DNA of 64,000 nucleotides, from NCBI GenBank assembly GCA_944358895.1, contig CALVSB010000007.1:140-64139 (forward strand). The letters run 5' to 3'. Below the pieces are notes generated by a model. The model was given only the letters and a program-made list of their open reading frames with translations. It was not told the DNA's origin and did no database searches. This document shows positions 20,301 through 53,998 of the stretch, in pieces. A program made the translations under genes and the position numbers. Position 1 is the first letter of the stretch; the number at the start of each line of letters is the position of its first letter. This stretch comes from an uncultured Bacilli bacterium. GTDB taxonomy: Bacteria; Bacillota_I; Bacilli_A; RFN20; CAG-826.

Positions 20301-22703
20301 GACGGCCACCAAAAGGTCGGAAAGTTCATTGGCGTGGTCGGCAATCGTCGAAATGGCATGCTTCAGCTTCCCGCCGGTCAGAGTCTGGCCGTTCAAGGAA
20401 GCGAGATAGGAAATGATGTCCTGGGCATCGAGAAGGGTCGAAAGAAGGTTGCTCAATTGGCTTCCGATGTTCGGGACGTCGAAGTCGAAGCTCAGTTCGA
20501 CCCCGAGGTTGGCGACCGGCGAATTCTCACCTTCGAGGAAACCTTCGAAAGCCTGGGGGATGATGGCCGTGGCCAGCTTCGAAGCGTCGAGATCGGCCAG
20601 GCCGGCTTCAAGGCCGGCGGCTAGGCCCTCGTCGACTCCAACGAAGCTCTTGTCGGGGGCAAAGTAGATGCCGGGCATGGCTTCAACGTGGAGGAGGAAC
20701 TCCTGCCCCGCTTCCGTCGTCGCGAAATCCCCGACGACGTTGAGGAGAGCCCGCCATTCAGGAAGGATGGTCGACTGGTCGGCCGCCATCTCAGCGGCGA
20801 TCGGGGAAAGGTCGATGGCGTCCTCGCCGCTAAGCTTGAGGGCGTCGTTGAGGTTCTCGCCGAGAAGCTTTACGAGTTTCGGAGTGGCGTTGAGGAGGAA
20901 TTCGGTTCCCAGAAGCGGCGTGATTTCCGCGTTCTTTGTCCCGCCTTCGGCTTTCTTCGAGGTCTGGGGCACCCCAACGAGGGCAGCCTTGGCCTTTTCG
21001 AAATTGCCCTCTTCGAGAATCGGGGCGAGGAAGTCCTGGTAAGAGAAAGGCTTCGTTTCCCCGTTCCAATCGGGGATGGCGTTGCAAACGGCTAGATAAA
21101 GATCCTCGTCGACGTTGACGAGGTTGACGGTCGAAAGGAAGAAATCGGCGAAGATCTCGCCCCATTTGATGTCTTCGTAGGCTTCTGGAATGAGGGTCGG
21201 CTTGCCGTCCTCCGGGGCAAAATCGACCAAGGTCACGGCTGGGAGGAAGTCGGCGATCGTGAGCTCGTCGGTCGCGACTTTGCCGCTTTCGTGGTCTTTG
21301 AAGGCCTGGATCGTCAGGGCGCTTTCGATGAGGGCGTCGAAGATCTTGAGGTTCTCCCCGTCGAGCGACTCGAAGATCGAAGCGACGAGGGAAGCGTTCT
21401 CTTCGCTTAGGACATTGCCGGCGACTTCGGAGGAGGATCCGAGTTCCCCGGTGTCGGGATCGACGACCCCGTCGATGAGATTCGAATGGATGACCTCGTC
21501 GTAGATGTCGGCCAGTTCTTCAAGGGTCAGCTGGTAGTTGTTGTCGGAGAAGTCGATGCCGGTCCCGACCTTGATGTAGCTGGAGACCGGGTCGATGTTC
21601 TCGAGGATGGAAAGGCCGTAGGGCAGAATGCCGGTCACGAGGCGGCTGCTCGCAAGGCTCCGGAGGGCTTCCGGGGCGGCCGAGGTGGTAAGGAGAAGCG
21701 GCCACTTGATGTTATCGAAACCCTCTTCCGAGATGACGCCCGACTGGACGGCAATCGTGAAGACCTCGGCCAAGGAGGATACTTCGCTAAGGAAGGACAT
21801 CTGGACCTTCTCCTGCTCGCCGAGGGAGACGCTCGTCGAGGTGAGGAACTCGACGAGCTTCATGTCGAGGGTCTTGCCGTTCTGGTCTTTGTTCCAGGCG
21901 AAGAAAGCCTGGGCAAAGGCCGAGTTGTCGTAGGCTTTGACCGCCCCGTCGATGGCTTGGTAGACGGAGTTGTCGACGGTGTGGAGGGTCGTCTGGTCCT
22001 CCTGGTCGAGCTGGCCGGCGTGCCAAGCGGCGCTCAAGGAGTTGGCCATGCTGGTAAGCGGAGCGACGAGCATGGCCAGGCAGATGATTGAAACGAGGCA
22101 GTTGGTAAGGCCGCCGACGAGTTTTCCCTTGCGGTAAGAAGCTTTCCGCTTGTCCTTCCGGATGAAGCGCTTGAAGGCGAGGTGCCACAGAAGGAAGACG
22201 AAGAAGGCCCCGAAAATGGCGATGAGGACAGCATCGACCATGATGAGGAGGAAGGAAATGAGACTCACCGCCAAGGAGAGGGCATAGGCCGAAAGATCGG
22301 CCGGAGCCATGTTCACGTTCAGGGCTTTGCAGAGGTTTTCGATGTAGCCGGAAACGGCCGCGAAAGCCGTCGTGCCTTCGCTAGCGATGGTGACGCTCGT
22401 CCCGTTCACGTTCAAGGTAAAAGCAGGCAGTTCCCAGCTGCTTCCCAGGCCGAACTGGGCAAGGTCGAAGTTCCCGACGGCGTTGACGATCGGCTGGAGG
22501 GTCAGCATCGCCACCGCCGCCAAAATGGCGAACATGACAAGCCGGTAGGTCCCGTACCTCCACCCTCGGAAAAGGCCGCGGACGAAGCCGAGGAGGGCGA
22601 TGATCAAGGAGCCGGCAAGAAGGCCGATGGTCACATAATTGACGATGTCGACGATGGTGGAGGGGTCGATGCCCGCACTGAGAAAACCCGGAACTGCAAT
22701 CAT
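14310..22703 (-). CDS. giant membrane-anchored acidic repeat protein (~2800 aa), unknown family
   Basis: Uninterrupted 8.4-kb ORF. The N-terminal ~230 aa carry about six hydrophobic helices. The remainder is acidic and rich in S/A/L/E, with repeated ~215-230-aa modules. ATG 22703 is preferred over the track TTG 22739, which would lie in the predicted -35. Confidence 0.9.
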   Translation of the reverse strand: MIAVPGFLSAGIDPSTIVDIVNYVTIGLLAGSLIIALLGFVRGLFRGWRYGTYRLVMFAILAAVAMLTLQPIVNAVGNFDLAQFGLGSSWELPAFTLNVNGTSVTIASEGTTAFAAVSGYIENLCKALNVNMAPADLSAYALSLAVSLISFLLIMVDAVLIAIFGAFFVFLLWHLAFKRFIRKDKRKASYRKGKLVGGLTNCLVSIICLAMLVAPLTSMANSLSAAWHAGQLDQEDQTTLHTVDNSVYQAIDGAVKAYDNSAFAQAFFAWNKDQNGKTLDMKLVEFLTSTSVSLGEQEKVQMSFLSEVSSLAEVFTIAVQSGVISEEGFDNIKWPLLLTTSAAPEALRSLASSRLVTGILPYGLSILENIDPVSSYIKVGTGIDFSDNNYQLTLEELADIYDEVIHSNLIDGVVDPDTGELGSSSEVAGNVLSEENASLVASIFESLDGENLKIFDALIESALTIQAFKDHESGKVATDELTIADFLPAVTLVDFAPEDGKPTLIPEAYEDIKWGEIFADFFLSTVNLVNVDEDLYLAVCNAIPDWNGETKPFSYQDFLAPILEEGNFEKAKAALVGVPQTSKKAEGGTKNAEITPLLGTEFLLNATPKLVKLLGENLNDALKLSGEDAIDLSPIAAEMAADQSTILPEWRALLNVVGDFATTEAGQEFLLHVEAMPGIYFAPDKSFVGVDEGLAAGLEAGLADLDASKLATAIIPQAFEGFLEGENSPVANLGVELSFDFDVPNIGSQLSNLLSTLLDAQDIISYLASLNGQTLTGGKLKHAISTIADHANELSDLLVAVATSPMLNPVVGGENNANIVSLIGLVFSTIGLEEPSNLGSTLSSLSPEATGTEMENFVAALLNVMDSGLVDATIAEKVDLASFEDVSFEEAFAKFDDSLIFRDCFGPVLDNLLAKNETFAPFFEEGFSFGNVADWQKEGQNLDVLVNSINELGAAGLLDGGTIDVFDSDPGAVENIVSVLATSDLFVSREDDGTYTYSFPRIVAKMIEDNLPAGSEAASFFKVPDGDGVAALAQDIRSTAVEGGSAADVEASQDLWKEEAHCFALVLRDILSLGGIDSIAVDGGISLKELSPEPLDFLLHDATDLTIFGRVLNYSLYSLLSEQIASSFPSSEGLSNLAAFYEPTLASYQETVAVSGNIFEREAEAMSKLVYAVLDPSTGIADAIGDDGEVSLDINDVSPEYLVRPLLQSLSESRLFNSLAAGKAKTAYEGILGTLLEDSGLFAEGEAEDYVVSVRGDREDFAEIVDAWNVENEALVATVAAIQESGVSTDSLASDPMSFFAQGTSYSLQRARLENILVAAADSKIVRPALASIVETGAASIGEGYAVNSEWLVEASSADYKEEARTLSYVMLYGSLVEDIANISIGSVVDSPAAENLLREAARSYVFNTLPAGEEGYYPAFVQIVDDMLSSSGYYGDEGEALTSERIDEVIAGIDAPGMEDEARFASWEEEIDALMDTLSSLEETGLELSGNVDVGSLFPEGAEETLLDEREESLAAFLVAANDSRLVYPGLASVLSDAVENVSLPNGATLENANYYYGERGSADVNYGLLSAPYDDEEMGRLAAVVRRASALSAETDFSIENLSGTPDAEILLRNLAASAIFDSLAEERSSSSDFGEYTVFENLLASSLEASGFYGSDGASSARIEEILARALTEEGSSRFMSFEERSAFWNGDGTTGEIASLVALADSLAEGQSLGIDFGSLSFAELFADEAKAEGARTALYGILDAAASCEIVYPAIPLNLESASAEGDSFSLDGADFYYTGRWGSQGDLLARPYGDAENERLSYVAMYAGLLGSTDLSSLDNVDGGQVGGLLANMSSSFIFNAVSEGSPNAFVGALNTLLSDNTTIAGLYFSDENPVNAYLGYADAEAKAAGFAEERYPALSYGDEDPGKRNWGDFLASEAGEEVVSLEQIVDSEGLSSVIDGLGGSGPVTLPEDKAELSSVLSLVSGSPLLKDMVPNAIRSALQDGSGVAFEGVDFARSNPYFAYYEAEWPAVPDGSSLSSALALRWFGDEEIASLVDVVYGAESLNSFFSSFETLSQEAIDEIRLLLREMAGSKVFNSVPFEATPGFAVTDSASGASIPVDSALTVFQGVLFYMMVETALYTRAYNPVLDAERGFRSAGAKLTSALFAATGSLNDDFGTKANLGAKAVDALVSDGMDGGLLNTVFQELSVDGSLALDFSNQGILNFEDINPASLGKILYSLNDVDFCDGVIANGAEYLLGDAINLGEWSSVTTDRKLEGERGSLRLSEIEYVGSGAAPTSLYYHLDGSYGVVQAVDGVYSFKNTAAAAGESSLIGPTDVYLDEALSKSVFASENIANFSFVYDLSTYHLLTSEQYRIGAIPSLVRFLGNVLYDYEAESYDQIESADDFFAPLLSGSSSEGDVDYVYEIASFLLNENGVFNANFETDGTILAADINAADLAYISGDVLIQNFLKFTINVPEAAQTVSVDLGNLFLHETTSDPVQTERNLIASLHESIYEEANMAADGAAPTSEEREAAYPGGLTYLSNNLADITMAVALYEAASNISIPLLDGASDAFKQLWLASGSTLGLMEAVPAGSEAVPVAETSVANNFVTSLVNRSYASGLAYQNGSPNRGFLGFVVAVDPSGTQQISTVSGLESLSKPRLEIDAVGGSLPSTLAGLRADSFLPYRSFYTALYQVLAGGNAVLDHSADQSYASLVNALNNEGVKLENADVIGLGATLLDSYFYELLAGGRYIHSQVEIASTMVSSSTGKPLSQSEISILAGTPLDLTGDAKYFGTGSYLEQACGFLS

Positions 22704-22710
22704 GTTAATG

Positions 22711-22739
22711 ATTGTAAGGCACTCATGGGGTCGAAGCAA
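22711..22739 (-). promoter_or_regulatory. promoter of the giant gene (leaderless candidate)
   Basis: Minus strand: TTGCTT (22739..22734), 17-nt spacer, TACAAT (22716..22711). ATG 22703 is 7 nt downstream with no SD. Confidence 0.45.
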
Positions 22740-22795: not shown

Positions 22796-23680
22796 ATGCT
22801 AGTACCTATGGACAGCCAACCGGGCAATCGCTTCTTTGCCCACCGGCGGCGTTGCACATGCGGCAAGGATATCGATGCGGCCCGCGACGCTTGCCCCCAT
22901 TGCGGGCGCATCTACGACGATCCTTGGACCCGCCGCTTCGCCCGGATTTGCCCCCTTGGCACTTATCGGGAATTGATTCTTTTCCTTTTCGGCCTCGTCG
23001 GCTTCCAACTCCTCGGATTCCTTCTTTCGTTCATTGCCCAAGCCTTCGCCCAAGAAGTCCTCGTTGGAGCCGGGCTAACCGGTGGATCGCTCCAGCAAGC
23101 CCTCATCGACTACACCCGTTCGGCCGCCTATTCGAGTTTCGTCAATTATGGGGCGTATGTCCTCTTCTTCGTCGCGGTCCTCATCGTCATCTGGCCCGAC
23201 CTGGCCTACATTGCCAAGCGGCAGTTCTCCAAGTGGCAGAATTACCTGATCGGCGGCGGCCTCGGCATCGTCCTCATCGTCGCCTCGATCCTTTGGAACA
23301 TAATCGTCATCCTGCTCGGCGGCGGCACGAGCGACAACCAAGCAAGCGTCGTCAATATAGTTACCTATTCGCCCATCCTTGGAATTGTGATTACCGGAAT
23401 TATAGGCCCGATTTGCGAGGAATTTGCCTATCGGGTCGGCCTTTTCAACCTCGGGATGCGGATCAACCGCTTGGCCGCCTATCTCTTCGCCACGGTCGTC
23501 TTTGGCCTCATTCACATGCACGATTTCGCTTCCGTCAACGAATGGCTCAATTTCCCCTCTTATCTAATTGCCGGCGGCATCCTCGCCTTCACCTATGACC
23601 GCTTCGGTTTGTCCGCTTCGATTACCGCCCACGTCGTCAATAATCTCTACGCGGTCATTTTGACCCTCATTGCCCAATGA
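22796..23680 (+). CDS. CPBP (CAAX) family intramembrane glutamic endopeptidase with N-terminal zinc ribbon
   Basis: CEEFAYRVGLF, FGLIHM and ITAHVVNN are the CPBP motifs. N-terminal CTCG...CPHCG forms a zinc ribbon. Polytopic. Confidence 0.85.
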   Translation: MLVPMDSQPGNRFFAHRRRCTCGKDIDAARDACPHCGRIYDDPWTRRFARICPLGTYRELILFLFGLVGFQLLGFLLSFIAQAFAQEVLVGAGLTGGSLQQALIDYTRSAAYSSFVNYGAYVLFFVAVLIVIWPDLAYIAKRQFSKWQNYLIGGGLGIVLIVASILWNIIVILLGGGTSDNQASVVNIVTYSPILGIVITGIIGPICEEFAYRVGLFNLGMRINRLAAYLFATVVFGLIHMHDFASVNEWLNFPSYLIAGGILAFTYDRFGLSASITAHVVNNLYAVILTLIAQ

Positions 23681-24603
23681 ACGTCCAGCGCTTTCAGTTT
23701 TTGGATGGGTTTTCACTCAAGATCCTGGCCCTCGTCCTCATGTTCCTCGACCACCTCGGGGCTTTCATGACAATGTACCTCACTCCGGTCGAAGGCACGC
23801 CGCTCTTCATTGCCGTCACCATCTTCCGCGCCGTGGGCCGGCTCGCCTTCCCCCTCTTCGCTTTCTTTGTGGCCGAAGGCATGCGAAAGACGCATGACCG
23901 CGGCAACTATCTCCTCCGCTTTGCCATCCTTTTTGCCATCGTCCTCATTGCTCAGGCAGGCTTAAGTGCCATTCCTTCCTTTGCCTCGGTATCGACCTTG
24001 GCTCAGCCCTTCGGTGACCTTCTCTCCTTCGCGGCGATTGCCTACCTTTACGAAAAAGGCGGCAACTGGCGCTTTCTCATCGCCCTGCCGGTCCTTTATC
24101 TCCTCGGGTCCGGGATCATCAACATCCTGAACAATAACGGTGTCCAGACCTACGTGCCCCCTTATCTTCTCGCCCAGTACAACATCGTGGGACTCGTTCT
24201 GTTCCTCCCTCTCTATTTCCTCCCGAAGGTGATGGAAGGGAAACTCCTTGGGGCAGGGCTGATTCAAAAGGAAGGAAGCGAAATCCTTTTCCCCCGCCCC
24301 GATAGCTATGGGGAGGCAGCCTACCGCCGCCACACGAATGCTCTCAATGCCTCCATCGTGGCTGCCGTTTTCGCCATCTGCTGGATTGTCTCTTATCTAA
24401 CGCCTTACTTCGGCTTTTACTTCGAGCCGCTCGGCCAGACCGGCATCTCCTTCGAGATGTACGGGATCATCGCCGCTTTCTTCCTCCTTCTATATAACGG
24501 CCGCCGCGGCTACCACGCGAAATGGTGGGTCTACTTCGAATGGTCGTTTTTTCCGGTGCATATCCTTTTGCTCGCCGGGATATTTGCACTAATATCACTC
24601 TAG
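23677..24603 (+). CDS. TraX family membrane protein
   Basis: 308-aa polytopic protein. N-terminal LKILALVLMFLDHLGAF is typical of TraX-family acyltransferase-like proteins. Overlaps the upstream stop by 4 nt. Confidence 0.8.
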   Translation: MNVQRFQFLDGFSLKILALVLMFLDHLGAFMTMYLTPVEGTPLFIAVTIFRAVGRLAFPLFAFFVAEGMRKTHDRGNYLLRFAILFAIVLIAQAGLSAIPSFASVSTLAQPFGDLLSFAAIAYLYEKGGNWRFLIALPVLYLLGSGIINILNNNGVQTYVPPYLLAQYNIVGLVLFLPLYFLPKVMEGKLLGAGLIQKEGSEILFPRPDSYGEAAYRRHTNALNASIVAAVFAICWIVSYLTPYFGFYFEPLGQTGISFEMYGIIAAFFLLLYNGRRGYHAKWWVYFEWSFFPVHILLLAGIFALISL

Positions 24604-28297: not shown

Positions 28298-28327
28298 TTG
28301 TCAAGGCGATTGCAACGTTTGTAAAAT
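28298..28327 (+). promoter_or_regulatory. promoter of the AAA+/T4CP/ClpP cassette (leaderless candidate)
   Basis: TTGTCA (28298-28303), 18-nt spacer, TAAAAT (28322-28327). ATG 28334 is 6 nt downstream with no SD. Confidence 0.4.
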
Positions 28328-28333
28328 TGAGTA

Positions 28334-29182
28334 ATGAAGACCACCGAACGCACTGTCCTCGGAATCGAAAGCCTCGAGGAACTATTGGAGGGCTGGGACC
28401 ATATCCGGAGCAACCGCAAGATGCTCCGCGGCCCCCTTATCCTCCCCAATTACTTCATGGAAGTCGACGGCGAGAGCTCGATTGCCGAAACCCTCGCCCG
28501 CCTCGTCGACAATCTCTCCAAGGACAGCGTCCTCATGTCCTTCCAGGGGAAGGTCAAGAGCTTTGCCTATTACCTTCCCTACACCGCGCCGGGCGAGAGC
28601 GATTTCCCGGGGCTAAGGACGTTCGACGCCATCTACAAGAAAAATCTTTGCCGCTTCGGCATGCCCTTCGAGGGCGTCATCGCCATCGACATCACCGAGT
28701 GGATCCTCGCGAAGGCCACCAAGAGCGAGAAGTTCCTCGCTTTCCTCGCCTACATCGCGACGATCGACGAAAAAAGCCTCATCATCTTCGTCTCGACCGC
28801 CCGGCAAGCCCTCTATAACAACGAAGCCTACGCGACGATCGCCGCCCGGACCCGGGTCCGTTACGTGAGCATCGGGGAAAGCGACGAGGAAAGGGCCCAT
28901 ACCCTTTTCCTCCAGTGCCTCGAAGAAGGCGGCTTTTCCCTGGCTCCGGAAGCCGATGCAACCCTCCGGAGCGTCATTTCCTTCGTCCTCTCGGTCGGGG
29001 ACAACCGCGGCTACCGGGCGATCCGCGAGCTGGCGAGCGAAATGATCTACGACCAGCTTTCGAGCTGCTCGCCCCACGACGTCCTTCTCAAGGAAGACGT
29101 CGAGAAATATCTCGCCGAGAGCGACTGGGGGAAGCGCTACGGCCGCCTGAGGGCCGGGGCCAAGATGGGCCTCGTCGGCTAG
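28334..29182 (+). CDS. degenerate SpoVK/CbbX-like AAA+ protein (Walker A and B lost)
   Basis: 282 aa. Collinear by eye with SpoVK/CbbX AAA+: LGIE..., then YFMEVDGESSIAETLARL where hxxxGxPGTGKT is expected, GVIAIDITEW where LFIDEAY is expected, SLIIFVSTARQ, and RVRYVSIGESDEERAHTLF. No GK[ST] P-loop anywhere. Confidence 0.55.
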   Translation: MKTTERTVLGIESLEELLEGWDHIRSNRKMLRGPLILPNYFMEVDGESSIAETLARLVDNLSKDSVLMSFQGKVKSFAYYLPYTAPGESDFPGLRTFDAIYKKNLCRFGMPFEGVIAIDITEWILAKATKSEKFLAFLAYIATIDEKSLIIFVSTARQALYNNEAYATIAARTRVRYVSIGESDEERAHTLFLQCLEEGGFSLAPEADATLRSVISFVLSVGDNRGYRAIRELASEMIYDQLSSCSPHDVLLKEDVEKYLAESDWGKRYGRLRAGAKMGLVG

Positions 29183-29197
29183 GAAAGGAGGACCGCC

Positions 29198-30838
29198 ATG
29201 GCCAAAGAAGAGTTCAGCTATCTCAAATACATCAACCCAGCGCCGGCGAGCCGCCACTTTTTGACCGACGAGGAAATCGGGGAGTTTGCCCCCGAGGTCG
29301 ACCTCGAACCCGGAAAGGCCAGCGAAGGCGGGGTTCCGGTCTACACCCGCGACGGGAAGAAAGCCGCCATCCTCGGGAGCGACCGCCACGCCCTCGTCAT
29401 CGGCGCTACCGGCTCGATGAAGACCCGGGCCGTCCTCATCCCGACCCTCTATAGCCTCGCCTGCCATGGCGAGAACATGATCGTCTCCGATCCCAAGGGC
29501 GAGATCTTCGAGAAGACCTCCGGCTTCCTCAAGAAGAACGGCTACGAGGTCCATTGCCTCAATTTCCGGGACGGCAAGAAATCGTCGACCTGGAATCCCC
29601 TCGACCTTCCCTATGCTTTCCTGAGGGAAGGCAACGTCGATCGTTCGATCGAGCTCGTCACCGGCTTTGCCAGCATCCTTTGCAACAACCTCAAAAGCGA
29701 GCGCGACCCCTATTGGCATAGCGCGGCCAAGCAGCTCATCCAGGGCCTCTCCTTCCTCCTCATGTCCTTAGCCGAAAAGTCCGAGCAGGTCACGGTCAAC
29801 AACGTCATGGCGTGCCTGGCCGAAATTTCGGCCGAAGAGGGGGAATATACGGAGAATTTCAGCGAGCTGGTCAATTCCTTGCCCGGCACCTCCTTCATTT
29901 CCCGCTACCTGACCGGAACCATCAACAACGCCAAGAACACCGCCCGGTGCATCACCTCCCTCGCGACGACGGCCCTCGGGCCCTTCGACGGAGCTTCGAT
30001 CAAGCGCCTGACGGCCAAAACCTCCTTTTGCTACCAGGATTTCGCCGACCCCCGGAAGAAAGTGGCCTTCTTCATAGTCGTCCCCGACGAAACGGACACC
30101 TTCAACGGCATCACGGCCACCTTCGTCAAGGAGATATACGAGTACCTGATCGACCAGGCCTCGAAGCGCCCGACCCTCGCGCTCCCCCGCCGCCTCAATT
30201 TCCTCCTCGACGAATTCGCCAATCTCCCGAAGATCGACGGCATCACCTCGATGATTTCGGCCGCCCGCTCCAGGAACATCCGCTTCTACCTCGTCGTTCA
30301 GAACAACGCCCAGCTGGAAGCCACCTATGGCCGGGCGCTGGCCCAGACCATCAAGTACAACTGCCAGAACTGGATCTTCCTCGCCAGCCGGGAAGCCGAA
30401 CTTCTCTCCGAGGTCCGCTCCGTCATCGGGGGCGACCCCGAGCCGCTGGCTTCCATCGCCGACCTCTCGTCCCTTTCCATCCGCTTCCCCCGGGTCGAGA
30501 GCATCGTCCTCAACGACCGGAGCAATCCCTATTTTGCCCGGCTCCTCGACATGTCGCGCTACCCGGGCCTCTGGAAGGAGACGGGCCCCAACCCCAATAA
30601 CCCCATCCCCTACCCGGCGGCCTATCCCTCGACCCGTCAAGGCGCCGTCCACGACTTCGACCTCGCTAAGTTCGTGGCCGAGGAAGTCGACGACGACGCC
30701 GAGGATGTCCTCGTCGAGTACCTCACCCTGAAGGAGCAAGGGGTCAGCAAAGAAAGCTACAAGGCCTTCAAGAAGAGCCGCCGTGGCCAAGAACTCCTGA
30801 AGCGGAAGAAAGAATTCAACGACTTCAACATCATTTGA
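29198..30838 (+). CDS. VirD4/TraG-type (type IV coupling protein-like) ATPase, no TM anchor
   Basis: 546 aa. HALVIGATGSMKTRAVLIPTL, MIVSDPKGEIFEKT, STWNPLD, LNFLLDEFANLPKI and SRNIRFYLVVQNNAQLEATYG match T4CP conserved blocks. GGAGG SD upstream. No hydrophobic N-terminus. Confidence 0.8.
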   Translation: MAKEEFSYLKYINPAPASRHFLTDEEIGEFAPEVDLEPGKASEGGVPVYTRDGKKAAILGSDRHALVIGATGSMKTRAVLIPTLYSLACHGENMIVSDPKGEIFEKTSGFLKKNGYEVHCLNFRDGKKSSTWNPLDLPYAFLREGNVDRSIELVTGFASILCNNLKSERDPYWHSAAKQLIQGLSFLLMSLAEKSEQVTVNNVMACLAEISAEEGEYTENFSELVNSLPGTSFISRYLTGTINNAKNTARCITSLATTALGPFDGASIKRLTAKTSFCYQDFADPRKKVAFFIVVPDETDTFNGITATFVKEIYEYLIDQASKRPTLALPRRLNFLLDEFANLPKIDGITSMISAARSRNIRFYLVVQNNAQLEATYGRALAQTIKYNCQNWIFLASREAELLSEVRSVIGGDPEPLASIADLSSLSIRFPRVESIVLNDRSNPYFARLLDMSRYPGLWKETGPNPNNPIPYPAAYPSTRQGAVHDFDLAKFVAEEVDDDAEDVLVEYLTLKEQGVSKESYKAFKKSRRGQELLKRKKEFNDFNII

Positions 30839-30851
30839 CGAAGGAGGATTT

Positions 30852-31442
30852 ATGGACGACAACGTCAAAATCGTGCAAGCCCAAAGCGAGGTAACGGCTC
30901 TCCTCACCCGGGAGTTCATCGCCAACCGCAACCTGCTCCTTTACGGGGAGATCAACGAGCAGACAGCCAACGACATGCTGATGCTCCTCACCAAGATGAG
31001 CGCCGAGGACCCCTCGGCCCCGATCAACCTTTACATCAACTCGCCGGGCGGCGACGTCCAGGCCGGGCTCACCATCGTCGACGTCATGAACTCGCTCAAG
31101 TGCCCGGTCAACACCATCTGCTACTCCCTCGCGGCTTCGATGGCCGCGGTCATCCTCGCGGCCGGTGACAAGCGCTATGCCCTCAAGCACGCGACCATCA
31201 TGATCCACCAACCCCTCGTCGGGGCCCAAGGCTGGCTCAAGAACGACGACGTGAATGCCATGGCCGAGCGCTCGAACCGCATCCGGCGGACCATCGAGGA
31301 AATCCTGGCCGAATCGACCAAGGGCAAGACCAGTCTCGAAGCCATGCACGAAGCCTGCTCGCGCGACCATTTCCTCACCTCGGAAGAAGCCCTCGAAATG
31401 GGGCTCATCGACGAAATTCTCGGGCAAAACCCCAAGATTTGA
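30852..31442 (+). CDS. clpP: ClpP-family serine protease, divergent N-terminus
   Basis: 196 aa. LYINSPGGDV, SLAASMAAV (Ser), IMIHQPL (His), SRDHFLTSEEALEMGLIDEI (Asp). AAGGAGG SD upstream. Stop is contiguous with the next gene. Confidence 0.88.
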   Translation: MDDNVKIVQAQSEVTALLTREFIANRNLLLYGEINEQTANDMLMLLTKMSAEDPSAPINLYINSPGGDVQAGLTIVDVMNSLKCPVNTICYSLAASMAAVILAAGDKRYALKHATIMIHQPLVGAQGWLKNDDVNAMAERSNRIRRTIEEILAESTKGKTSLEAMHEACSRDHFLTSEEALEMGLIDEILGQNPKI

Positions 31443-31451
31443 TTGGATTTT

Positions 31452-34400
31452 ATGTCAGAATCCCTGCGCTTCGGACTCTTAGTAACGATCCTGGTCCTCG
31501 CCTCGGCCATCGTTTTCCTCTTCCTATTGGCCCTCGTCCTGGCCCTCGGAAGGAAGACGCGGAACCGCTTCTCGGCCTGGGCTTTCCTCACGGCCATCTT
31601 CGTCCTTTCCTGTTTCAGTTACGGCTTTTTGAACTACGTCGTAACCAGTGGTTCCTCGCCTTGGGAGAGCGTCTTCCAAGGCTTTTACCGCGGGGCTTCG
31701 GCCTTTGCTCTTCAAAATAGCCCCGACATCTTCGAGGGAGCCGCGCCCGAAGGCTCGAGTCCCATCCTCTTCGATTTGGCTTTGGCCGCGAAGATTCTCC
31801 TCCTCTATGTCGGATCCCCGGTTCAGCTCGCCTCCCTCTCCCTTTCCCTCATCAGCACTTTCTACCGCCGCTTCCGGGCCTCGTTCGACAATGCAATCGC
31901 TTGGCTTAGGGGGTGGGGAAGACGCCTCCACTTCCATCCGGAAAAGCGCCGGCCCTACAAGACCGTCGTCTATACCGACCTGCCCTACCGCGACATCGAG
32001 TACTTCCTCCGCTCGCTCAAGAAGGACAAGGAGATGATCCTCCATGTCGTCGTGCCGCGTTCGGCCGAGGCGACGGGGGAAGGCGAGGAACTCGCTTCCA
32101 TCCTGAAGCTCAACGAATATGCCGTCTACGAGGACTACCTCGACGACTTTTCGAGTTTCAAGCTCCACCTCCGTTCCGGCCTCGTCCGCGGACGCATCAA
32201 TTTCTATTCCCTCTTCCGGGAAGACGTCGACAACCTCAAGTTCGCCAAACTGGCTCTCGCCTATTGCGAAGACCTCGAAAGGCGGGCCAAGCGGAAGAAA
32301 CTCCGCCTTTTCCTCCGGAGAATCGGCCTCAAGGTGAAAGACGCTCGTACCATCGTCGACCGGCACCTCGTTCGCTTCTACGTTTCCTTTCAGGACGAGA
32401 AGTTCAACGCCAAGCTCGACTTCATGAAAGGAAGCAAGGGGGCCATCAAGCTGGTCAACGAGTACAGCTGGGCCGCGACGAAATTCGTCTACAAGAATCC
32501 GCTCAACCGGCTGCTCGACTTCAACCTTCCTTCCGATGCGGACGGCGAGCTCGCGGCCAGGCGGCTCCGCGGGGAAGGGGTCAGCGACCTCCATGTCTAC
32601 CTCCTTGGCTTCGGCCATATCGGGCAAGCCCTTCTCGACCGGATGTTCCCCTCCTACCAGTTTGCCCTGCCTATGGGAAGCAAAGGCCAAGGAAGCCTCC
32701 TTCCTTCGGGTCTCCCGCCCCAAAAGGTCCGCTACCACATTTACGACGAGGACGCCGACGAGAAGCTGAAGGAATATCTTTCCCGCTATCCCTCCTTCTA
32801 TGAGGCCAACTACGAGCCGGGGAGCAACTATTTCGAGCGCCCCTTCATCGACGGGAAAAAGGAGAAGCTCCCTTTCTCGCCCCACCGGGTCAAACTCGAT
32901 AGCGAGGCCACCTACGCTTCGGTGGCCAAAGACATCGCGGATGCTCTTTCTTCAAGGCAGGCCATGGAAGCGGGCCAGCTCCCGAACCAAGCCATCGTCA
33001 TCGTCTCCCTCGGGAATAGCGAAGCCAACATCTCGGCCGCCCTTTCCCTCCGGAAAGCCTTCCGGCGGGCGATGGCCGTCAAGAACAGGGGCTTCGGGGA
33101 ATGGGGAAAGCGGAAGGCTCTCGTCATCTATCCCTACGTCAAGGAAAACGATGCCTACCGTCCCGACGAACGCCTTTTCGCCTCCCTCATCACGATGAAG
33201 GCCAAGCTCGAAAGCGAAGCCATCTCCAAGAATCAAAAAGATGCCTTCAACGAAATGAACGCCCGCCTCTCGCCCTCGCTCAGCCGTTATTGCTATTCCG
33301 ACCTCTTCCTCCAGAAGAGCGAAAAAGAGGACAATCTTGCCAAAGTCGTCGCGGCCTACAAGAACCTCGAGCGCGATTCGCATTTCCACGAGCCTTTCTC
33401 CTTCTTCGACGATATCGTGAGGAGGAGAAATCCCAAGATCGCGGACATCATCGAGGAGCGGCGCCTCTTCGTCTTCAACCTCGATAGCGGCGATGCCTCC
33501 GATGCTGTCTCCTACCTCCGTCCCCATCTCAACGTCGCCTCCTCCCTCCTAGGCGTACCCCTTTCACCCTACGTACGGAAGCTCAAGCGCTTCTACAAGA
33601 AGGAAAGCCGCTGGGCCGCGGAGGCCTTCAAAGGCCACGAAGTTACGGCCGAAGGGCGGCGCTTCCTCTCCCTCAAGGCCGCCCGGGCCAAGCAAAGCCC
33701 GGCTCGCCTCGCTTCCCTCTCCTACCGCGAGCTGAGCGCCTACCTCTGGGCCAACGAGGACGTGCCTCTCGTGACCTTTGGGCGGGGCGGCTATCTCTAT
33801 GACGTCTTCGCCGATCGCCTCGGCGAGCTCGGGGCCCTCACCAATTGGTCCTATTCCCACCCCATCGCTTCCCCGAGCACCATCAACGGCTCGCCCCTCA
33901 TGGCCGGCTTTGCCGCCCCCGAGGCAAAGGGAGGGGGCGCCAAGGAAAAAGCCCGCCTTCTCAAGAAGGAGCGGGAGGCCATGAACGAGGAGTTCGACCG
34001 CTCGGGATATCTCGCCCAGCGGGACAACGTCGAACCGGTCCTCGCCCTCCCCTACAAGCTTTTCTTCCTCGGCTACCGCCTCTCTTTCGGAACGAAGAAG
34101 GAGCGGCGCCACACGGCCATCTCGCCGCTCGCCCAAGGAAAGAGACTCCGCAACGAAAAGCGCGATCCCTCAAGCGTCATTAATGACCTTCTCCTTTCCT
34201 CGGCCTTCCGGCCCGAGGCTGAGTCGCTTATCAGCGAAGATGAACTTAAGTCCCTTCAGGACCTTCTTGCTCGCATTGAGTCTAGCGGCTATGCCGCTTG
34301 GCGAAAGACCGGGGACAATGCCTCCTCGGTCAAGGAAGCGGTCCTCCAAGCCTTCATGGCGATCTATGGGGACATTCTGCCGCGGACCCGTCCCCTCGGG

Positions 34401-35216
34401 GCGGCCTTGGCTTCCTACGAGCATAACCGCTGGGTCATCCAAAAAGCCCGGGATGGTTTCTTCCCGATCCGGAAAGAAGAACTAGGGAAACGAGCTTATG
34501 ATGGCGGTTCCCTCAAAAACAAGCTGAGTCAGGCCCATAACTGCGTCGCCACCTCGCTCGGCCTCTACCAAATGGCTTTCGAGGCCATGTCGGCCGTCAT
34601 GGACAAGGAGACCGAAGACCTCTCCGGGATTTCCAAGGATAAAGTCTTCCCTTGGGAAGAGGACATTGCCGGCTTCCTTTTGCCGGGCGGCTCTTCGAAG
34701 GCCTACGACCCCCGCTTTGACGAAGGCGAGCGCTTCGCCCTTTACCGCGTCCTCCTGGCCTTCGAGCTCTCCGCCAAACTGGGGCACAAAGGCCAAGAAA
34801 GGATGGAAAATTTCCGAAAACGCGTGCAAAACGCCATCGGAAAGGACGAAAAAGACGTCTATCCCATCTTCAAAGCCTGCATCAAGGAGGAACTCGATCG
34901 TCCTTCCTTCCTCCTAGCGGCCATCCTCCTCGCCGTTTCCGACGGCTCGCACGGAACCCCCTTCGGCATGGCCAAGACGACCTTCCATAACGACCTGGCG
35001 ACCTTGGTGGAAATCGACGACCGCCTGACGACCCTCGGGGGTGATCCCATCGACATCTTCCTCGAGCGGCGCCATCCTGACCTTTATCGGGCTTCCGGCA
35101 CCCTGGCCGGCCTCTTCGCTGCCACCTACAACCACACCCATTTCGAGTGGCGGGCCGAGGTCGACAAGAGCGGAGAAGACGGCCAACTGTCAATCGACGA
35201 AGGAAGGGACAAATAG
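31452..35216 (+). CDS. 1255-aa membrane protein with Rossmann (TrkA-N/RCK-like) domain and RyR-like C-terminal region
   Basis: N-terminal 3-4 TM helices (LLVTILVLASAIVFLFLLALVLAL...). LHVYLLGFGHIGQALLDRM...YHIYDED forms GxGxxG plus an acidic beta2 end. AIVIVSLGNSEANISAAL is present. SYEHNRWVIQKARDGFFP (nt ~34410-34470) is RyR-like. TTG 31443 is an alternative start. Confidence 0.8.
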   Translation: MSESLRFGLLVTILVLASAIVFLFLLALVLALGRKTRNRFSAWAFLTAIFVLSCFSYGFLNYVVTSGSSPWESVFQGFYRGASAFALQNSPDIFEGAAPEGSSPILFDLALAAKILLLYVGSPVQLASLSLSLISTFYRRFRASFDNAIAWLRGWGRRLHFHPEKRRPYKTVVYTDLPYRDIEYFLRSLKKDKEMILHVVVPRSAEATGEGEELASILKLNEYAVYEDYLDDFSSFKLHLRSGLVRGRINFYSLFREDVDNLKFAKLALAYCEDLERRAKRKKLRLFLRRIGLKVKDARTIVDRHLVRFYVSFQDEKFNAKLDFMKGSKGAIKLVNEYSWAATKFVYKNPLNRLLDFNLPSDADGELAARRLRGEGVSDLHVYLLGFGHIGQALLDRMFPSYQFALPMGSKGQGSLLPSGLPPQKVRYHIYDEDADEKLKEYLSRYPSFYEANYEPGSNYFERPFIDGKKEKLPFSPHRVKLDSEATYASVAKDIADALSSRQAMEAGQLPNQAIVIVSLGNSEANISAALSLRKAFRRAMAVKNRGFGEWGKRKALVIYPYVKENDAYRPDERLFASLITMKAKLESEAISKNQKDAFNEMNARLSPSLSRYCYSDLFLQKSEKEDNLAKVVAAYKNLERDSHFHEPFSFFDDIVRRRNPKIADIIEERRLFVFNLDSGDASDAVSYLRPHLNVASSLLGVPLSPYVRKLKRFYKKESRWAAEAFKGHEVTAEGRRFLSLKAARAKQSPARLASLSYRELSAYLWANEDVPLVTFGRGGYLYDVFADRLGELGALTNWSYSHPIASPSTINGSPLMAGFAAPEAKGGGAKEKARLLKKEREAMNEEFDRSGYLAQRDNVEPVLALPYKLFFLGYRLSFGTKKERRHTAISPLAQGKRLRNEKRDPSSVINDLLLSSAFRPEAESLISEDELKSLQDLLARIESSGYAAWRKTGDNASSVKEAVLQAFMAIYGDILPRTRPLGAALASYEHNRWVIQKARDGFFPIRKEELGKRAYDGGSLKNKLSQAHNCVATSLGLYQMAFEAMSAVMDKETEDLSGISKDKVFPWEEDIAGFLLPGGSSKAYDPRFDEGERFALYRVLLAFELSAKLGHKGQERMENFRKRVQNAIGKDEKDVYPIFKACIKEELDRPSFLLAAILLAVSDGSHGTPFGMAKTTFHNDLATLVEIDDRLTTLGGDPIDIFLERRHPDLYRASGTLAGLFAATYNHTHFEWRAEVDKSGEDGQLSIDEGRDK

Positions 35217-35240
35217 ATTTTCGCGGCCGCGCGGACCGCT

Positions 35241-35258
35241 ATAATCGAGACGAAGGAG
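35241..35258 (+). promoter_or_regulatory. internal -10 box plus SD for the fifth cassette gene
   Basis: TATAAT (35241-35246), then AAGGAG (35253-35258) 8 nt before ATG 35267. Confidence 0.35.
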
Positions 35259-35266
35259 ACTTGCCC

Positions 35267-36220
35267 ATGAACCAAAGCCAAGCCCGTGCCGATTCCTTCC
35301 TTTTCGCCCTCCTCGACCTCCAAGCCGACGGGGCTTTCCAAGACGGCGTTTCCCTTGTCGGATTTCCTGACGAGGAGCCGGAGACCTTCATTGCCTTTTT
35401 GCAGGATCTGGCCTGCTGCTCTTTCTTCTCGAAAGGGACATCTTCTATCGATGTCGTCCTCAAGAAAGAGGGGCAAGGCAAGAGCCAGATTGAGGAGACG
35501 TTCAATAAATTTGTTCCTTTTCTTAAGAGCGAAGGCCTCGACATTGCCGTCCGCTTTCTTAAGGAAGGGGCACCCGCTTCTTCCAAACGCGTGGCCATTG
35601 TCTATGCAGCGGATGAAGATATCGCCCGCGGCAGAGTGACCAGCATCCTCATGCCGGGGAATTTCCCCTTGCCTAAGAAGGCCCATGTCGAAAAAGAATA
35701 CGGATTCCGCCTCGGCCATGCCGAGGCCTGGCTCGATAAGTCCTTCGACGGGAAGGCTATCGCTTTCCCGGGCGAGATTCGCCTTGCTCCCCGCCCTTTT
35801 GAACGAAAGGAGAAAGGCTGGCAAAAAGCCTATTCGGCTCTTTTCGCCTACTACGTGGAAGGCTATTTGAAAAACGAAGACGTCCTCACAGAAGCCAACA
35901 CTTGGTTTTCCTATTTCCAAGGCAAGGCGCCGGAGGAACGTTACGAGCTCATCAAGGCGACCTATCGGCGAAAGGCCGGAAGCCCGATCGAAGCGGCTCT
36001 CCATGACCTGGCCGCGGAGGAGCACCGCCGCTGGGAACTAAGGACCTTGGTCTATGCTGATCCGGAGGTCATCGCCGACAAGGCAAGAAAAGGCATGATG
36101 GTCGGCTTCGAACGCTTGGTCGATGCCTATCTATCGTCCCCGTCTTCGCGCGACATCATTGTTTACGACTACCTCGACGTCCTCGCGGCCTTCGATTTCC
36201 TCTTCGGCGACCGCTTCTAA
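35267..36220 (+). CDS. hypothetical cytoplasmic protein with RyR-like EHxRW motif
   Basis: 317 aa from MNQSQARADS. C-terminal LAAEEHRRWELRTL echoes the YEHNRW motif of the upstream giant. The track start (35147) would overlap the previous gene by 70 nt and lacks an RBS. Confidence 0.65.
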   Translation: MNQSQARADSFLFALLDLQADGAFQDGVSLVGFPDEEPETFIAFLQDLACCSFFSKGTSSIDVVLKKEGQGKSQIEETFNKFVPFLKSEGLDIAVRFLKEGAPASSKRVAIVYAADEDIARGRVTSILMPGNFPLPKKAHVEKEYGFRLGHAEAWLDKSFDGKAIAFPGEIRLAPRPFERKEKGWQKAYSALFAYYVEGYLKNEDVLTEANTWFSYFQGKAPEERYELIKATYRRKAGSPIEAALHDLAAEEHRRWELRTLVYADPEVIADKARKGMMVGFERLVDAYLSSPSSRDIIVYDYLDVLAAFDFLFGDRF

Positions 36221-36245
36221 GGTTAACCTTCGCTTGCCGAAAGCC

Positions 36246-36251
36246 TACAAT
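36246..36251 (+). promoter_or_regulatory. -10 box of the HAD gene (leaderless candidate)
   Basis: TACAAT (36246-36251), 7 nt before ATG 36259 with no SD. A weak -35 TTAACC lies 17 nt upstream. Confidence 0.35.
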
Positions 36252-36258
36252 CCTATCG

Positions 36259-36900
36259 ATGAAAAAAGCAGCCTTCATTGATTTGGACGGAACGATCTTC
36301 GACAGTGAGCGCGTCTATCAGCGTTTCTGGAAAGAAGCGATTGCCGGAGCCGGGTTCGACCCCTTTTTCTGCGATACCCTCAAACATCGAAGTGCCGACC
36401 GCGCCTTAGCCACGAGCTATCTTCGCTCGATCTACGGGCCGGGCATCGACGTCGAGCTCGTCCGAAAGCTTCGGGACGAAGGGATGAAAGAGTGGCTGGA
36501 GGAAAACCGCTACGAGGTGAAGCCCGGGGTCATCCAAGGCCTCGTCTACCTTCGCTCAAAGGGAATCAAGCCCTACATCGTGACGGCTACCCCCAAGGAA
36601 AAGGCCGTGAAGACCCTTTCGGAATATGGCCTCCTTTCCTATTTCGAAGATGTCATCTCGGCCAAGGATGTCGCGCACGGAAAGCCGGCTCCCGATTGTT
36701 ATCTAAAGGCCATCGCCGAGGCGAAAGTAACGCCCGAGGAAGGCCTTGCCATCGAAGACGCTCCCAACGGGATCGAGGCTGCGCTCGCCGCCGGGCTCGA
36801 CACCTACATGGTTCCCGACTTGAGCGAACCCGACGAAGCGATGAAAGCCCGCCTCAAGGGCGTTCTTCGCAACTTCAACGAAATTCGCCGCTATTTGTAG
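36259..36900 (+). CDS. HAD-IA family hydrolase (beta-phosphoglucomutase/phosphatase-like)
   Basis: FIDLDGTIFDSE (motif I), VTAT (motif II), K...EDAPNGIEAALAAG (motifs III/IV). Confidence 0.85.
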   Translation: MKKAAFIDLDGTIFDSERVYQRFWKEAIAGAGFDPFFCDTLKHRSADRALATSYLRSIYGPGIDVELVRKLRDEGMKEWLEENRYEVKPGVIQGLVYLRSKGIKPYIVTATPKEKAVKTLSEYGLLSYFEDVISAKDVAHGKPAPDCYLKAIAEAKVTPEEGLAIEDAPNGIEAALAAGLDTYMVPDLSEPDEAMKARLKGVLRNFNEIRRYL

Positions 36901-42689: not shown

Positions 42690-42698
42690 GCGCTTCCC

Positions 42699-43148
42699 TT
42701 AATCTTGTTCGCCCGCCTTCTCCTCGAGGAGGCGGGTTTTGTTTTGCTCCACCGCCGCCACGATCTTGTCGACGCAGTCGTCGAGGTGCTTTTCGATTTC
42801 CTCGCCCCAGAAGCGGAGGACCGTGTAGCCTTCGCCTCGGAGGCGGGCGTTGACCTCTTTGTCGCGTTCGATGTTGCGCTTGATCTTCTTGACCCAATAC
42901 TCGCGGTTGGTCGTGAGCTTGGCTTCGTTTTCCGCGAAGTTCTTCCCGTGCCAGAACTCGCTGTCGCAGAAGATGGCGATCTTGAGCCCCTTCATCGAGA
43001 CATCGGGGTGACCGAAGATATATTTGCTGTTCTTCCGGTAACGGAGGCCCTTCGCATAGAGGGCCTTCCGAAGGCGGACCTCGATGCCGGTCTCCTTCCC
43101 GCGGATGGCCGACATGATCTTATGGTTGAGCTCGGGCGAACGTTTCAT
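42699..43148 (-). CDS. vsr: very short patch repair endonuclease
   Basis: 149 aa. IEVRLRKAL...GLRYRKN...GHPDVSM...IAIFCDSEFWHG...REYWVKKIKRNIERDKEV...GYTVLRFW matches Vsr throughout, including the PD catalytic Asp and FWH. Confidence 0.88.
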   Translation of the reverse strand: MKRSPELNHKIMSAIRGKETGIEVRLRKALYAKGLRYRKNSKYIFGHPDVSMKGLKIAIFCDSEFWHGKNFAENEAKLTTNREYWVKKIKRNIERDKEVNARLRGEGYTVLRFWGEEIEKHLDDCVDKIVAAVEQNKTRLLEEKAGEQD

Positions 43149-52351: not shown

Positions 52352-52393
52352 CGTTAGGTCCTCCTAAGCGTCTTCGATATAATAATTCCGACC

Positions 52394-53395: not shown

Positions 53396-53431
53396 TAAAG
53401 GTTCGTCTATTCCTAATAAATTTAATATTTC

Positions 53432-53458
53432 ATAACTACGTTTATGTTATGTAGTTAT
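53432..53458 (+). terminator. possible terminator hairpin
   Basis: ATAACTAC (53432-53439) / GTAGTTAT (53451-53458) inverted repeat 37 nt after the stop. Only a weak T tract follows. Confidence 0.3.
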
Positions 53459-53969: not shown

Positions 53970-53991
53970 TATAATCCGCCTTCCGTGGAGG
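53970..53991 (+). promoter_or_regulatory. -10 box and SD of the second ABC exporter pair
   Basis: TATAAT (53970-53975), GGAGGA (53986-53991), ATG 53999. Confidence 0.4.
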
Positions 53992-53998
53992 AACGAGC

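Follow-up and report, generated by a model that had tools for sequence, protein, structure and literature searches.

Locus Organization

We analyzed a 64,000-nucleotide stretch of contig CALVSB010000007.1 (positions 140 to 64,139, forward strand) from the assembled genome of an uncultured Bacilli bacterium (GCA_944358895.1); this whole stretch is referred to below as the window. Five genes on its forward strand, here named g1 to g5, place a relative of the type IV coupling proteins (T4CPs) and a ClpP peptidase side by side in one closely spaced cassette. The first gene, g1 (28334-29182), encodes a 282-aa degenerate P-loop/AAA+-like protein, the invariant partner of the T4CP-like gene. It is followed by g2 (29198-30838; 546 aa), a VirD4/TraG-type coupling-protein ATPase without membrane segments; by g3 (30852-31442; 196 aa), a ClpP with Ser96, His119, and Asp172; and by g4 (31452-35216 from its ATG), whose 1254-aa product combines predicted membrane segments, an RCK-like region, and a divergent RyR domain. 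If translation began instead at a TTG at 31443, the g4 product would have 1257 aa. The last gene, g5 (35267-36220), starts at an ATG inside a longer open reading frame (ORF; 35147-36220) and encodes a 317-aa protein of unassigned family that contains EHRRW.

Rereading the ORFs and junctions directly bore out the initial annotation's picture of five co-directional, tightly spaced genes with promoter and Shine–Dalgarno (SD) motifs. The gap between g1 and g2 is 15 nt and that between g2 and g3 is 13 nt, with SD sequences AAAGGAGG before g2 and GAAGGAGG before g3. For g4 there is no SD; its TTG follows the clpP TGA without any gap, and the ATG lies 9 nt further on. Fifty nucleotides separate the g4 stop from g5, which has its own TATAAT (35240-35245) and AAGGAG (35253-35258). 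Upstream of g1, a promoter-like site (28298-28327) consists of TTGTCA (28298-28303), an 18-nt spacer, and TAAAAT (28322-28327), followed after 6 nt by the ATG; it is the best such site in the interval 27.4-37.2 kb, matching at 10 of 12 positions. Because the −10 element is separated from the g1 start codon by 6 nt that hold no SD, the operon mRNA may be leaderless or nearly so. Terminator-like sites on the forward strand inside the cassette occur at chance level (17, against 14.1 ± 3.3 in shuffled sequence). GC content is 0.56-0.61 per cassette gene and 0.55-0.63 in the flanks, and GC3 (0.77-0.85 for g1, g2, and g4) is alike in neighboring genes, as expected from the native composition claimed earlier.

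A Soluble Coupling-Protein ATPase and Its P-Loop Partner

Profile searches sustained the assignment of g2 to the VirD4/TraG-type ATPases. Pfam returned T4SS-DNA_transf (E = 8e-45), TraG-D_C (1.6e-20), and TrwB_AAD_bind (2e-19), and the NCBIfam model NF045973 ("VirD4-like conjugal transfer protein, CD1115 family") scored 270 bits (cutoff 250); among solved structures, TrwB comes nearest (1E9R; E = 4.8e-7). As in VirD4, TraG, TrwB, and the CD1115 family, g2 carries nucleotide-binding and all-alpha domains, a Walker A variant of the form G-x-T-G-S-[KM]-K-[ST], and a Walker B ending in DEF. Both motifs are intact (GATGSMKT and FLLDEF), and the GSMK variant is common to 32 of the 120 closest clusters. 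Unlike these T4CPs, g2 lacks an N-terminal membrane anchor—no hydrophobic segment was found, and the maximum 19-residue hydropathy is 1.15—so the earlier description of it as free of transmembrane helices holds. It also differs in being chromosomal and paired with g1, for which tblastn gave no plasmid match; in having no relaxase, VirB4, or mating-pore genes among the annotated genes; and in having relatives that are sometimes fused to an RyR domain.

Two further observations concern g2 relatives. In loci L053, L068, L086, and L087, the T4CP-like proteins are extended at the C-terminus by an unknown module of ~100 aa (YYDILENDEGEFLF...LYYDGG.HA...), present in one to three copies. Some Bacilli loci hold two GSMK-type T4CP-like genes a few kilobases apart (L016:950-2512, L024:1745-3337); these two loci also encode, immediately upstream of g1, a protein of 1190-1270 aa that is not related to g4, and neither has a ClpP nearby.

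The product of g1 gave no useful match in Pfam, NCBIfam, PHROGs, or PADLOC. Its family was assembled from the neighbors of T4CP homologs, a word-indexed protein search having returned near-identical sequences only. In the window protein, Walker A is dead, with DGESSI at the aligned position. Across 71 family members, many retain SGVGKT, SGAGKT, PGVGKT, or GAGKS, and others have degenerate forms. The Walker-B-like strand, hhhhD-[IV]-x-E-W (VIAIDITEW in the window), keeps its Asp and has Ile or Val where the AAA+ catalytic Glu sits, and this holds family-wide. In this lineage, intact Walker motifs within the g1-g2 pair are found only in g2. Two other features are invariant in an 11-sequence alignment: R174, which is nearly so in the wider family, and F70-x-G72, which lies 21-23 residues after the P-loop lysine. 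Pore loop 1 of Clp-type AAA+ proteins lies 27 residues after the P-loop lysine in ClpX and FtsH, and the g1 F-x-G would fall at about that position.

When a 21-sequence g1 profile was compared with solved structures (177,635 distinct sequences), CbbX (3ZUH, 3SYL) ranked first at a sub-significant E = 0.24 over 117 positions, in register through Walker B, sensor 1, the arginine region, and the lid. An earlier 11-sequence profile had found nothing among the solved structures, and individual members gave weak Pfam matches to AAA_22, AAA_16, KAP, and AAA. The single-sequence AlphaFold model (predicted local distance difference test, pLDDT, 42) was too poor and was left out of the fold search. Because SpoVK/CbbX had been named beforehand, the first-rank match to CbbX counts as meaningful corroboration. 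We regard g1 as a probable new P-loop family that is AAA+-like and weakly resembles CbbX. The earlier label of a dead SpoVK/CbbX-like AAA+ is borne out in part: Walker A is dead here and CbbX is the top solved structure, but the match reaches only E = 0.24 and the P-loop is intact in many relatives. Members of the CbbX/SpoVK/EccA clade have a similar size (~280-300 aa); g1 departs from them in its degenerate Walker A in this lineage, in the replacement of the catalytic Glu by Ile or Val, and in an added tail resembling a ClpP-docking element.

A longer (~690 aa), second g1-like paralog ending in IGF or LGF occurs at L054:9536-11641, L058:6903-8930, and L082:3955-6036, each of which already has a g1-T4CP pair. 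One candidate, a 285-aa protein downstream in L006, was rejected as a g1 homolog; the real L006 g1 is at 9151-9996.

Conservation of the Pair across Clostridia and Bacilli

To place the cassette in a wider setting, GTDB species representatives were scanned in two rounds, first from a g1 alignment and next from one of T4CPs; the latter round returned 494 relatives, of which the best 80 were fetched. Altogether 86 distinct loci were classified with local hidden Markov models. Most come from metagenome-assembled genomes (MAGs), and the locus counts given here are not phylogenetically independent. Both g1 and a T4CP-like gene are present in 71/86 loci, spanning Clostridia (Oscillospiraceae, Acutalibacteraceae, Lachnospiraceae, and Ruminococcus) and Bacilli (Erysipelotrichaceae, Izemoplasmatales, uncultured "Bacilli", and Mollicutes MAGs). 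The two genes lie within 400 nt of each other in every one of 65 measured pairs, and over these pairs the identity matrices of their proteins are strongly correlated (r = 0.92), a value matched in none of 500 permutations. Because of this adjacency and the covarying identities, the invariant unit is g1 plus T4CP rather than the five-gene cassette. The cassette as initially annotated is thus correct in its genes and their order here but not as a fixed unit; ClpP and RyR proteins behave as movable accessories.

Among the 71 loci with the pair, ClpP lies within the locus in 17, an RyR-type protein or domain in 14, and both together in 6. The closest counterpart of the window, a relative whose g4 is 87% identical, has the same five genes in the same flanks. 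More distant metagenome T4CP homologs (36-43% identity) also have ClpP beside them: In L004, a ~282-aa gene, T4CP, and ClpP sit between thrS and infC; in L005, the same trio stands beside STAS/SpoIIE genes; and in L006, a g4 homolog is followed by g1, T4CP, and ClpP. The way in which ClpP has joined the pair takes several separate forms. It comes after the pair in the GSMK clade and, within the GSKK clade, in L052, L082, and L093. In L008 it precedes the pair, in L022/L023 it does so at a distance of 4.5 kb, and in L017 and L028 it is oriented divergently. L034 and L069 have it next to a second T4CP-like gene, which is divergent. Conserved synteny in unrelated genomes, which had been proposed as a check, is what was found: g1-T4CP, with or without ClpP, recurs across Clostridia and Bacilli.

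ClpP and the C-Terminal Tail of g1

The g3 product is a ClpP by its Pfam match (CLP_protease, E = 1.1e-51), and S96, H119, and D172 are invariant among the ClpPs of the system, as expected from the intact Ser/His/Asp motifs read earlier. Its top solved structure is Bacillus subtilis ClpP (E = 3.6e-37), in an alignment that begins at residue 22; by this comparison, the N-terminal gating segment (the first 21 residues) appears not to be conserved relative to canonical ClpP. The protein falls below every NCBIfam ClpP cutoff, with a best score of 167.6 bits against 249 (NF001368) and 150.8 against 308.6 for TIGR00493. A sharply separate subfamily of system ClpPs was considered and rejected: g3 is 43-49% identical to housekeeping ClpPs and 49-58% identical to the ClpPs of four other system loci aligned.

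A possible point of contact with ClpP lies at the end of g1. ClpX (IGF), ClpA (IGL), and ClpC (LGF/VGF) dock ClpP through a loop carrying an [LIV]-G-[FL] tripeptide. The window g1 ends AKMGLVG, with the tail M-G-L-V-G (29165-29179) as a candidate ClpP dock. Of 68 full-length g1 proteins, 43 have an [ILMV]-G-[FL] motif among their final 12 residues, where the rate of this tripeptide in the remainder of those proteins predicts 0.7; endings such as KIGFGQ, RIGFGGKV, HIGFGGGI, LGFIGD, and LGLIGE are typical. All examined ClpP-linked loci have the motif except L011, which has Y-G-F, and the g1 proteins of L012 and L018, where ClpP is absent, lack it. The tail resembles the ClpP-docking loop of ClpX and ClpA. 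Elsewhere, the usual neighbor of ClpP is ClpX: A ClpX-like ORF lies within 6 kb in 58/79 of the closest ClpP loci. Because g1 carries this tail and ClpP has repeatedly been recruited beside the g1-T4CP pair, in contrast to that usual neighborhood, we read g1 as a putative ClpP-docking subunit, and the adaptor role suggested earlier for the dead AAA+ gains new support from the conserved tail.

The Membrane Protein g4 and Its RyR Domain

The g4 protein gave no useful match in Pfam (including TrkA_N and RyR), NCBIfam, PHROGs, or PADLOC. An exhaustive HMMER search of 1.84 billion proteins recovered 25 representative relatives, which have in common the N-terminal half and two invariant motifs, GFG and E-H-x-R-W. 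Three hydrophobic segments open the protein (31455-31811; residues 2-20, 42-60, and 102-120), and a Rossmann motif, GFGHIG, lies at residues 386-391. This motif belongs to an RCK/TrkA_N-like region (31959-33281; residues ~170-610, with limits estimated from the secondary structure of the model), which the alignments show to be the conserved portion of g4-family proteins. A 22-sequence alignment yielded an AlphaFold model (pLDDT 67.6; predicted template modeling score, pTM, 0.72) whose top Foldseek matches were the tandem-RCK gating rings of CASTOR/DMI1, at probability 0.99-1.0 but with E = 0.02-0.04 and a target-normalized TM-score (TMt) of 0.36; the relative in L053 matches TrkA_N at E = 0.0018. 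The model thus suggests that g4 carries tandem RCK-like Rossmann domains, and the N-terminal membrane helices and GxGxxG Rossmann motif noted from sequence are upheld.

Toward the C-terminus, the EHNRW region (34374-34586; residues ~975-1045) showed no direct match to RyR in Pfam or in profile searches of solved structures, and hhalign against an approximate RyR1 segment gave less than 1%. The relationship emerged through intermediates. Proteins with EHxRW recur beside g1-T4CP in other lineages and give sub-threshold Pfam matches to RyR and TrkA_N. An alignment of RyR segments from such neighbors (A10) matches solved RyR domains at E = 2.7e-20 and the bacterial structure 3NRT at 3e-9, and an alignment of the g4-family region (A8) matches A10 with an hhalign probability of 95.4% (E = 2e-8). 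By this route, the EHNRW region is classed as a divergent RyR domain, in keeping with its initial description as RyR-like. E990, H991, R993, and W994 are invariant in 21 family members, and a downstream His1029 lies in AHNCV.

RyR domains (PF02026) bind or cleave 2'/3'-cyclic ADP-ribose (2'/3'-cADPR) through an H-x-x-W pair and a downstream His (PMC13232231, 2026 preprint); the corresponding ligand-contact residues—H991, W994, and H1029—are kept in g4. Bacterial and phage RyR proteins, including TrkA_N-RyR proteins and phage RyDEP (PMC13232231), resemble g4 in the H-x-x-W with downstream His and in the joining of RyR to a Rossmann/RCK region, and canonical RyR domains are found in relatives of the module, T4CP-fused or adjacent. 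They differ in that the g4 domain is too divergent for Pfam and is tied to an ATPase-protease module rather than being a stand-alone sponge or glycosidase.

RyR domains are linked to the pair in four forms. Canonical domains are fused to the C-terminus of the T4CP-like protein at L043:7983-10028 and L044:7965-10166 (...LAKNTHEVWSKTRMEQGWVYG...HPCLVEYDALPESEKEFDRNT...), or are encoded by ~100-aa ORFs directly beside g1-T4CP (L080:4495-4827, L089:1357-1659). Membrane-RCK-RyR proteins occur in the window and in L006, L011, L017, L028, and L053, and mid-size proteins in L058 and L075. A 1244-aa giant upstream in L006 was compared with g4 and rejected as a homolog.

For g5, no match was found in Pfam, NCBIfam, PHROGs, or PADLOC. 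The recurrence of EHxRW in this fifth protein is confirmed as EHRRW, but a likeness to RyR is unproven: Alignment with g4 or the RyR set covers 18-23 columns around the motif at hhalign probabilities of 6% and 20%, and the downstream H-x-C motif was not found in g5. The gene was seen only in this lineage, and its membership in the module is tentative.

Genomic Context and Comparison with Known Systems

The flanks of the cassette were annotated with Pfam for every gene within ±10 kb and for the 20 largest ORFs further out. All annotated surroundings are housekeeping in character, among them an ATP synthase operon, ABC transporters, FeoB, thioredoxin, Ham1, and similar genes. The annotated genes include no relaxase, VirB4, integrase, or ClpX/A/C, and several ORFs of the window have no Pfam hit or lie outside the scanned set; the original claim that these genes are missing from all 64 kb accordingly holds for the annotated genes, which do not cover the whole 64 kb. 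Plain chromosome is also the typical context elsewhere, with no conjugation genes among the annotated neighbors in L004-L006, L016-L018, L096, and L097. The only conjugative context seen among the annotated neighborhoods is L094, where a VirB4-like gene and a lysozyme/M23 hydrolase accompany a T4CP-like gene with a canonical GSGKT Walker A, and g1 is lacking. Searches by tblastn gave no match to either of two g1-family proteins on 72,556 plasmids, nor to one of them on 50,697 phage records. T4CPs on plasmids are ~31% identical to g2.

Several genes related to the cassette have conflict-type neighbors. T4CP-like genes without g1 (Walker A GASGSKKT; 719-867 aa) stand beside ~1330-aa STAND proteins with DUF4062 and NACHT domains, Pfam-tested at L030:3858-7859 and assigned by sequence clustering in L033, L035, L037, and L053. 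A 1012-aa DUF4062 protein (L015:636-3674) lies beside a g4 homolog, and a GAP1-M protein occurs in L031. These neighbors, judged by their domains, offer hints of conflict or defense.

PADLOC-DB 2.0.0 gave no matches for g1, g3, g4, or g5 and only weak mad8/HerA matches for g2 (E = 1e-4 or worse); no system was assigned, as had been anticipated. Literature searches returned no description of the module, and large conflict-system surveys did not mention VirD4, TraG, ClpP, RyR, or DUF4062. The module is widespread in gut and rumen Firmicutes and undescribed. It shares with the ATPase-plus-protease defense pairs—for example, IetAS and the Lon- or caspase-type effectors of CBASS (cyclic-oligonucleotide-based antiphage signaling systems) and type III CRISPR—an ATPase and a serine protease in one operon, a patchy distribution, and possible nucleotide-signal control. 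It differs from them in its protein families, in lacking a PADLOC match, and in having no cyclase or TIR signal generator in the locus.

The module also has features in common with ClpXP, ClpAP, and ClpCP. The g3 triad is intact, a hexamer-type ATPase is encoded in the same operon, and the AAA+-like g1 carries [ILMV]-G-[FL]. The differences are as follows: Walker A of g1 is lost here and the Walker B Glu is missing family-wide; the g1 G-[FL] motif is in a C-terminal tail and not an internal loop; the sole ATPase with intact Walker motifs is of VirD4/FtsK-HerA type; and the ClpP N-terminal gating region is unconserved, with no zinc-ribbon or N-domain adaptor. By analogy, the known system that the module would most resemble in its working is the Clp protease (ClpXP/ClpAP), although its set of partners is unprecedented: no canonical unfoldase among the annotated genes, a dead g1 Walker A, and a ClpP below curated cutoffs.

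Proposed Mechanism and Alternatives

The domain identities, gene linkage, and motif conservation described above, and the absence of g1 relatives from the plasmid and phage records searched, are compatible with a ClpP-coupled degradation machine in which a T4CP and a pseudo-AAA+ protein act under RyR/RCK nucleotide control, possibly in defense. We put the chances of this reading, which is drawn from sequence comparison, at about even, and the defense role takes roughly half of that share. In such a machine, g1 would form a ring or adaptor, stacked as an interface ring on ClpP, with its [ILMV]-G-[FL] tails entering the hydrophobic pockets of ClpP in the manner of the ClpX and ClpA loops (IGF/IGL). 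The T4CP-like hexamer would recognize substrates and drive them by ATP toward the ClpP chamber. The RyR domain, carried here by the membrane-anchored RCK-RyR protein g4, would bind an adenine-nucleotide-type ligand and gate or localize the machine, which g4 would tether to the membrane in the window's organism. Its role may lie in conflict or defense, through degradation of invading-element proteins or suicidal proteolysis; a specialized housekeeping function is the alternative.

A more far-reaching version is possible, and we hold it only tentatively: a new class of ATP-dependent protease that is at once an immune effector, in which a VirD4/FtsK-HerA-type hexamer motor feeds ClpP via a pseudo-AAA+ adaptor ring, docked through IGF-type tails at its C-termini, under an RyR-ADP-ribose-type switch. 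That switch may be membrane-anchored via an RCK gating ring, free, or fused to the ATPase, and the targets could be plasmid or phage proteins (for example, relaxase-type substrates of type IV secretion systems) or, in abortive infection, the cell's own proteome.

Several points weigh against a ClpP-coupled machine or its use in defense. ClpP is absent within 6-8 kb in 54/71 of the loci with g1 and T4CP, so coupling there would need a distant housekeeping ClpP. L016 has the tail motif yet no ClpP nearby, and 15 g1 proteins of a Lachnospiraceae clade end in VFTSQF(N/S)Y, which is not IGF-like. The AAA+ assignment of g1 itself leans on a match of sub-significant E value and a low-pLDDT model, and g3, by its similarity to ordinary ClpPs, could also be the cell's general ClpP. 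T4CPs are DNA-dependent ATPases, and we know of no case in which protein unfolding by a T4CP has been established. With regard to defense, the composition of the cassette is native, unlike that of a recent island; the loci are not classical defense islands; and the silence of PADLOC shows that the module is undescribed, not what the module does.

The alternative that we take most seriously, though it is unlikely, keeps the pair on DNA: g1-T4CP would be an FtsK/TrwB-type DNA-handling motor acting in repair, removal of proteins bound covalently or tightly to DNA, or processing of incoming relaxase-ssDNA, with ClpP clearing the adducts and RyR/RCK providing regulation. The match of g2 to the DNA-binding all-alpha domain of T4CPs (TrwB_AAD_bind, E = 2e-19; TrwB 1E9R) fits this, as do the relaxase-DNA adduct, the natural substrate of T4CPs, and the occurrence of the pair without ClpP in most loci. 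Yet neighbor clustering linked no nuclease, helicase, or recombinase recurrently to the pair, and the IGF-like tail together with the repeated capture of ClpP points to proteolysis as a central activity. A minimal export or membrane-targeting device, in which the T4CP-like protein couples substrates to a g4 channel with an RCK gating ring and ClpP serves quality control, seems improbable. It would account for the three membrane segments of g4 and the ion-channel RCK gating rings among its best structural matches, and canonical T4CPs do pass substrates to a membrane channel. An RyR-type component of any kind, however, accompanies only 14/71 of the g1+T4CP loci; the RyR domain lacks a membrane part where it is fused (L043/L044) or encoded as a ~100-aa ORF (L080/L089); a g4 homolog is found away from any T4CP in L015; and no TVGYG-type selectivity motif of K+ channels was seen on reading the g4 N-terminal sequence.

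The two remaining explanations would dissolve the module, and synteny bears on both. One takes g3 as a housekeeping ClpP working with a distant ClpX or ClpC and lying by chance beside an unrelated two-gene module, with g4 and g5 also unrelated. The 43-49% identity of g3 to ordinary ClpPs, its intact triad, and the native composition are what it would lead one to expect. The adjacency nevertheless recurs in several orientations and T4CP clades, whereas chance would place ClpP there in ~1% of loci (a rough estimate from 1-3 clpP per ~3 Mb genome). Cotranslation with g1 and g2 is indicated by the SD sites and the short gaps (13-15 nt), the usual clpP-clpX pairing is not present at this locus, and the g1 tail motif is found at the ClpP-linked loci examined, with the L011 variant (Y-G-F) as the exception, and is missing from the ClpP-less L012 and L018. 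A chance neighborhood was rejected on synteny, and the explanation as a whole is one that we judge very unlikely. The other sees a decayed integrative conjugative element whose coupling protein is the sole survivor, and it is close to refuted. Although g2 passes the NCBIfam CD1115 conjugal-transfer model and has distant relatives on conjugative plasmids (~31% identity), with one conjugative context in L094, the ORFs are intact and the pair is coinherited across dozens of species. Relaxase, VirB4, and integrase were not found among the annotated genes of the window or the other annotated loci, tblastn found no g1 homolog on the plasmids or phages searched, and the cassette occupies the same position in the relative with 87% g4 identity; decay was rejected on this synteny.

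Implications

To our knowledge, every characterized ClpP partner is a canonical AAA+ unfoldase. If the proposal of a ClpP-coupled machine is true, a ClpP served by a coupling-protein-type ATPase via a pseudo-AAA+ adaptor widens the rules for powering self-compartmentalized proteases, T4CPs gain a function outside conjugation and secretion, and the long-standing question whether T4CPs unfold or translocate proteins becomes testable. The recurrent RyR link, fusions included, ties a newly recognized fold that binds ADP-ribose signals to what would be a host effector machine. This suggests that nucleotide-signal immunity has a further, new branch or, failing that, that a new ligand-gated protease exists. 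Should the T4CP truly be the motor and the RyR domain truly the switch, the result would be a categorically new ligand-gated immune protease.

Some consequences concern annotation and reach. About 490 species-level genomes of gut and rumen Firmicutes carry T4CP-like relatives, including cultured Lachnospiraceae, Oscillospiraceae, and Blautia-related strains. The label "VirD4-like conjugal transfer protein" applied by annotation pipelines probably inflates counts of conjugative elements in these Firmicutes.

Additional Features of the Window

Directly after g5 lies a gene for a HAD-family hydrolase (36259-36900), which has a separate promoter-like site (36223-36251). Elsewhere, too, the system is flanked by HAD genes—after ClpP in L004, L007, L009, and L010, and before g1 in L018—and a link is possible. 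A TraX-family (Pfam) membrane protein is encoded at 23677-24603 and a Vsr-like endonuclease at ~42690-43140; neither has conjugation or restriction-modification genes among its annotated neighbors. About 5.6 kb upstream of the cassette, a giant ORF on the reverse strand (14313-22739) has no Pfam family recorded; its product measures 2809 aa from the first start and 3031 aa in the public gene call. Two patches of low GC content, 52000-54000 (0.46) and 58000-60000 (0.49), stand out from a level of ~0.59 and may be small acquired segments; the second contains a gene for an AAA_14+DUF4143 ATPase (58344-59612, reverse strand).

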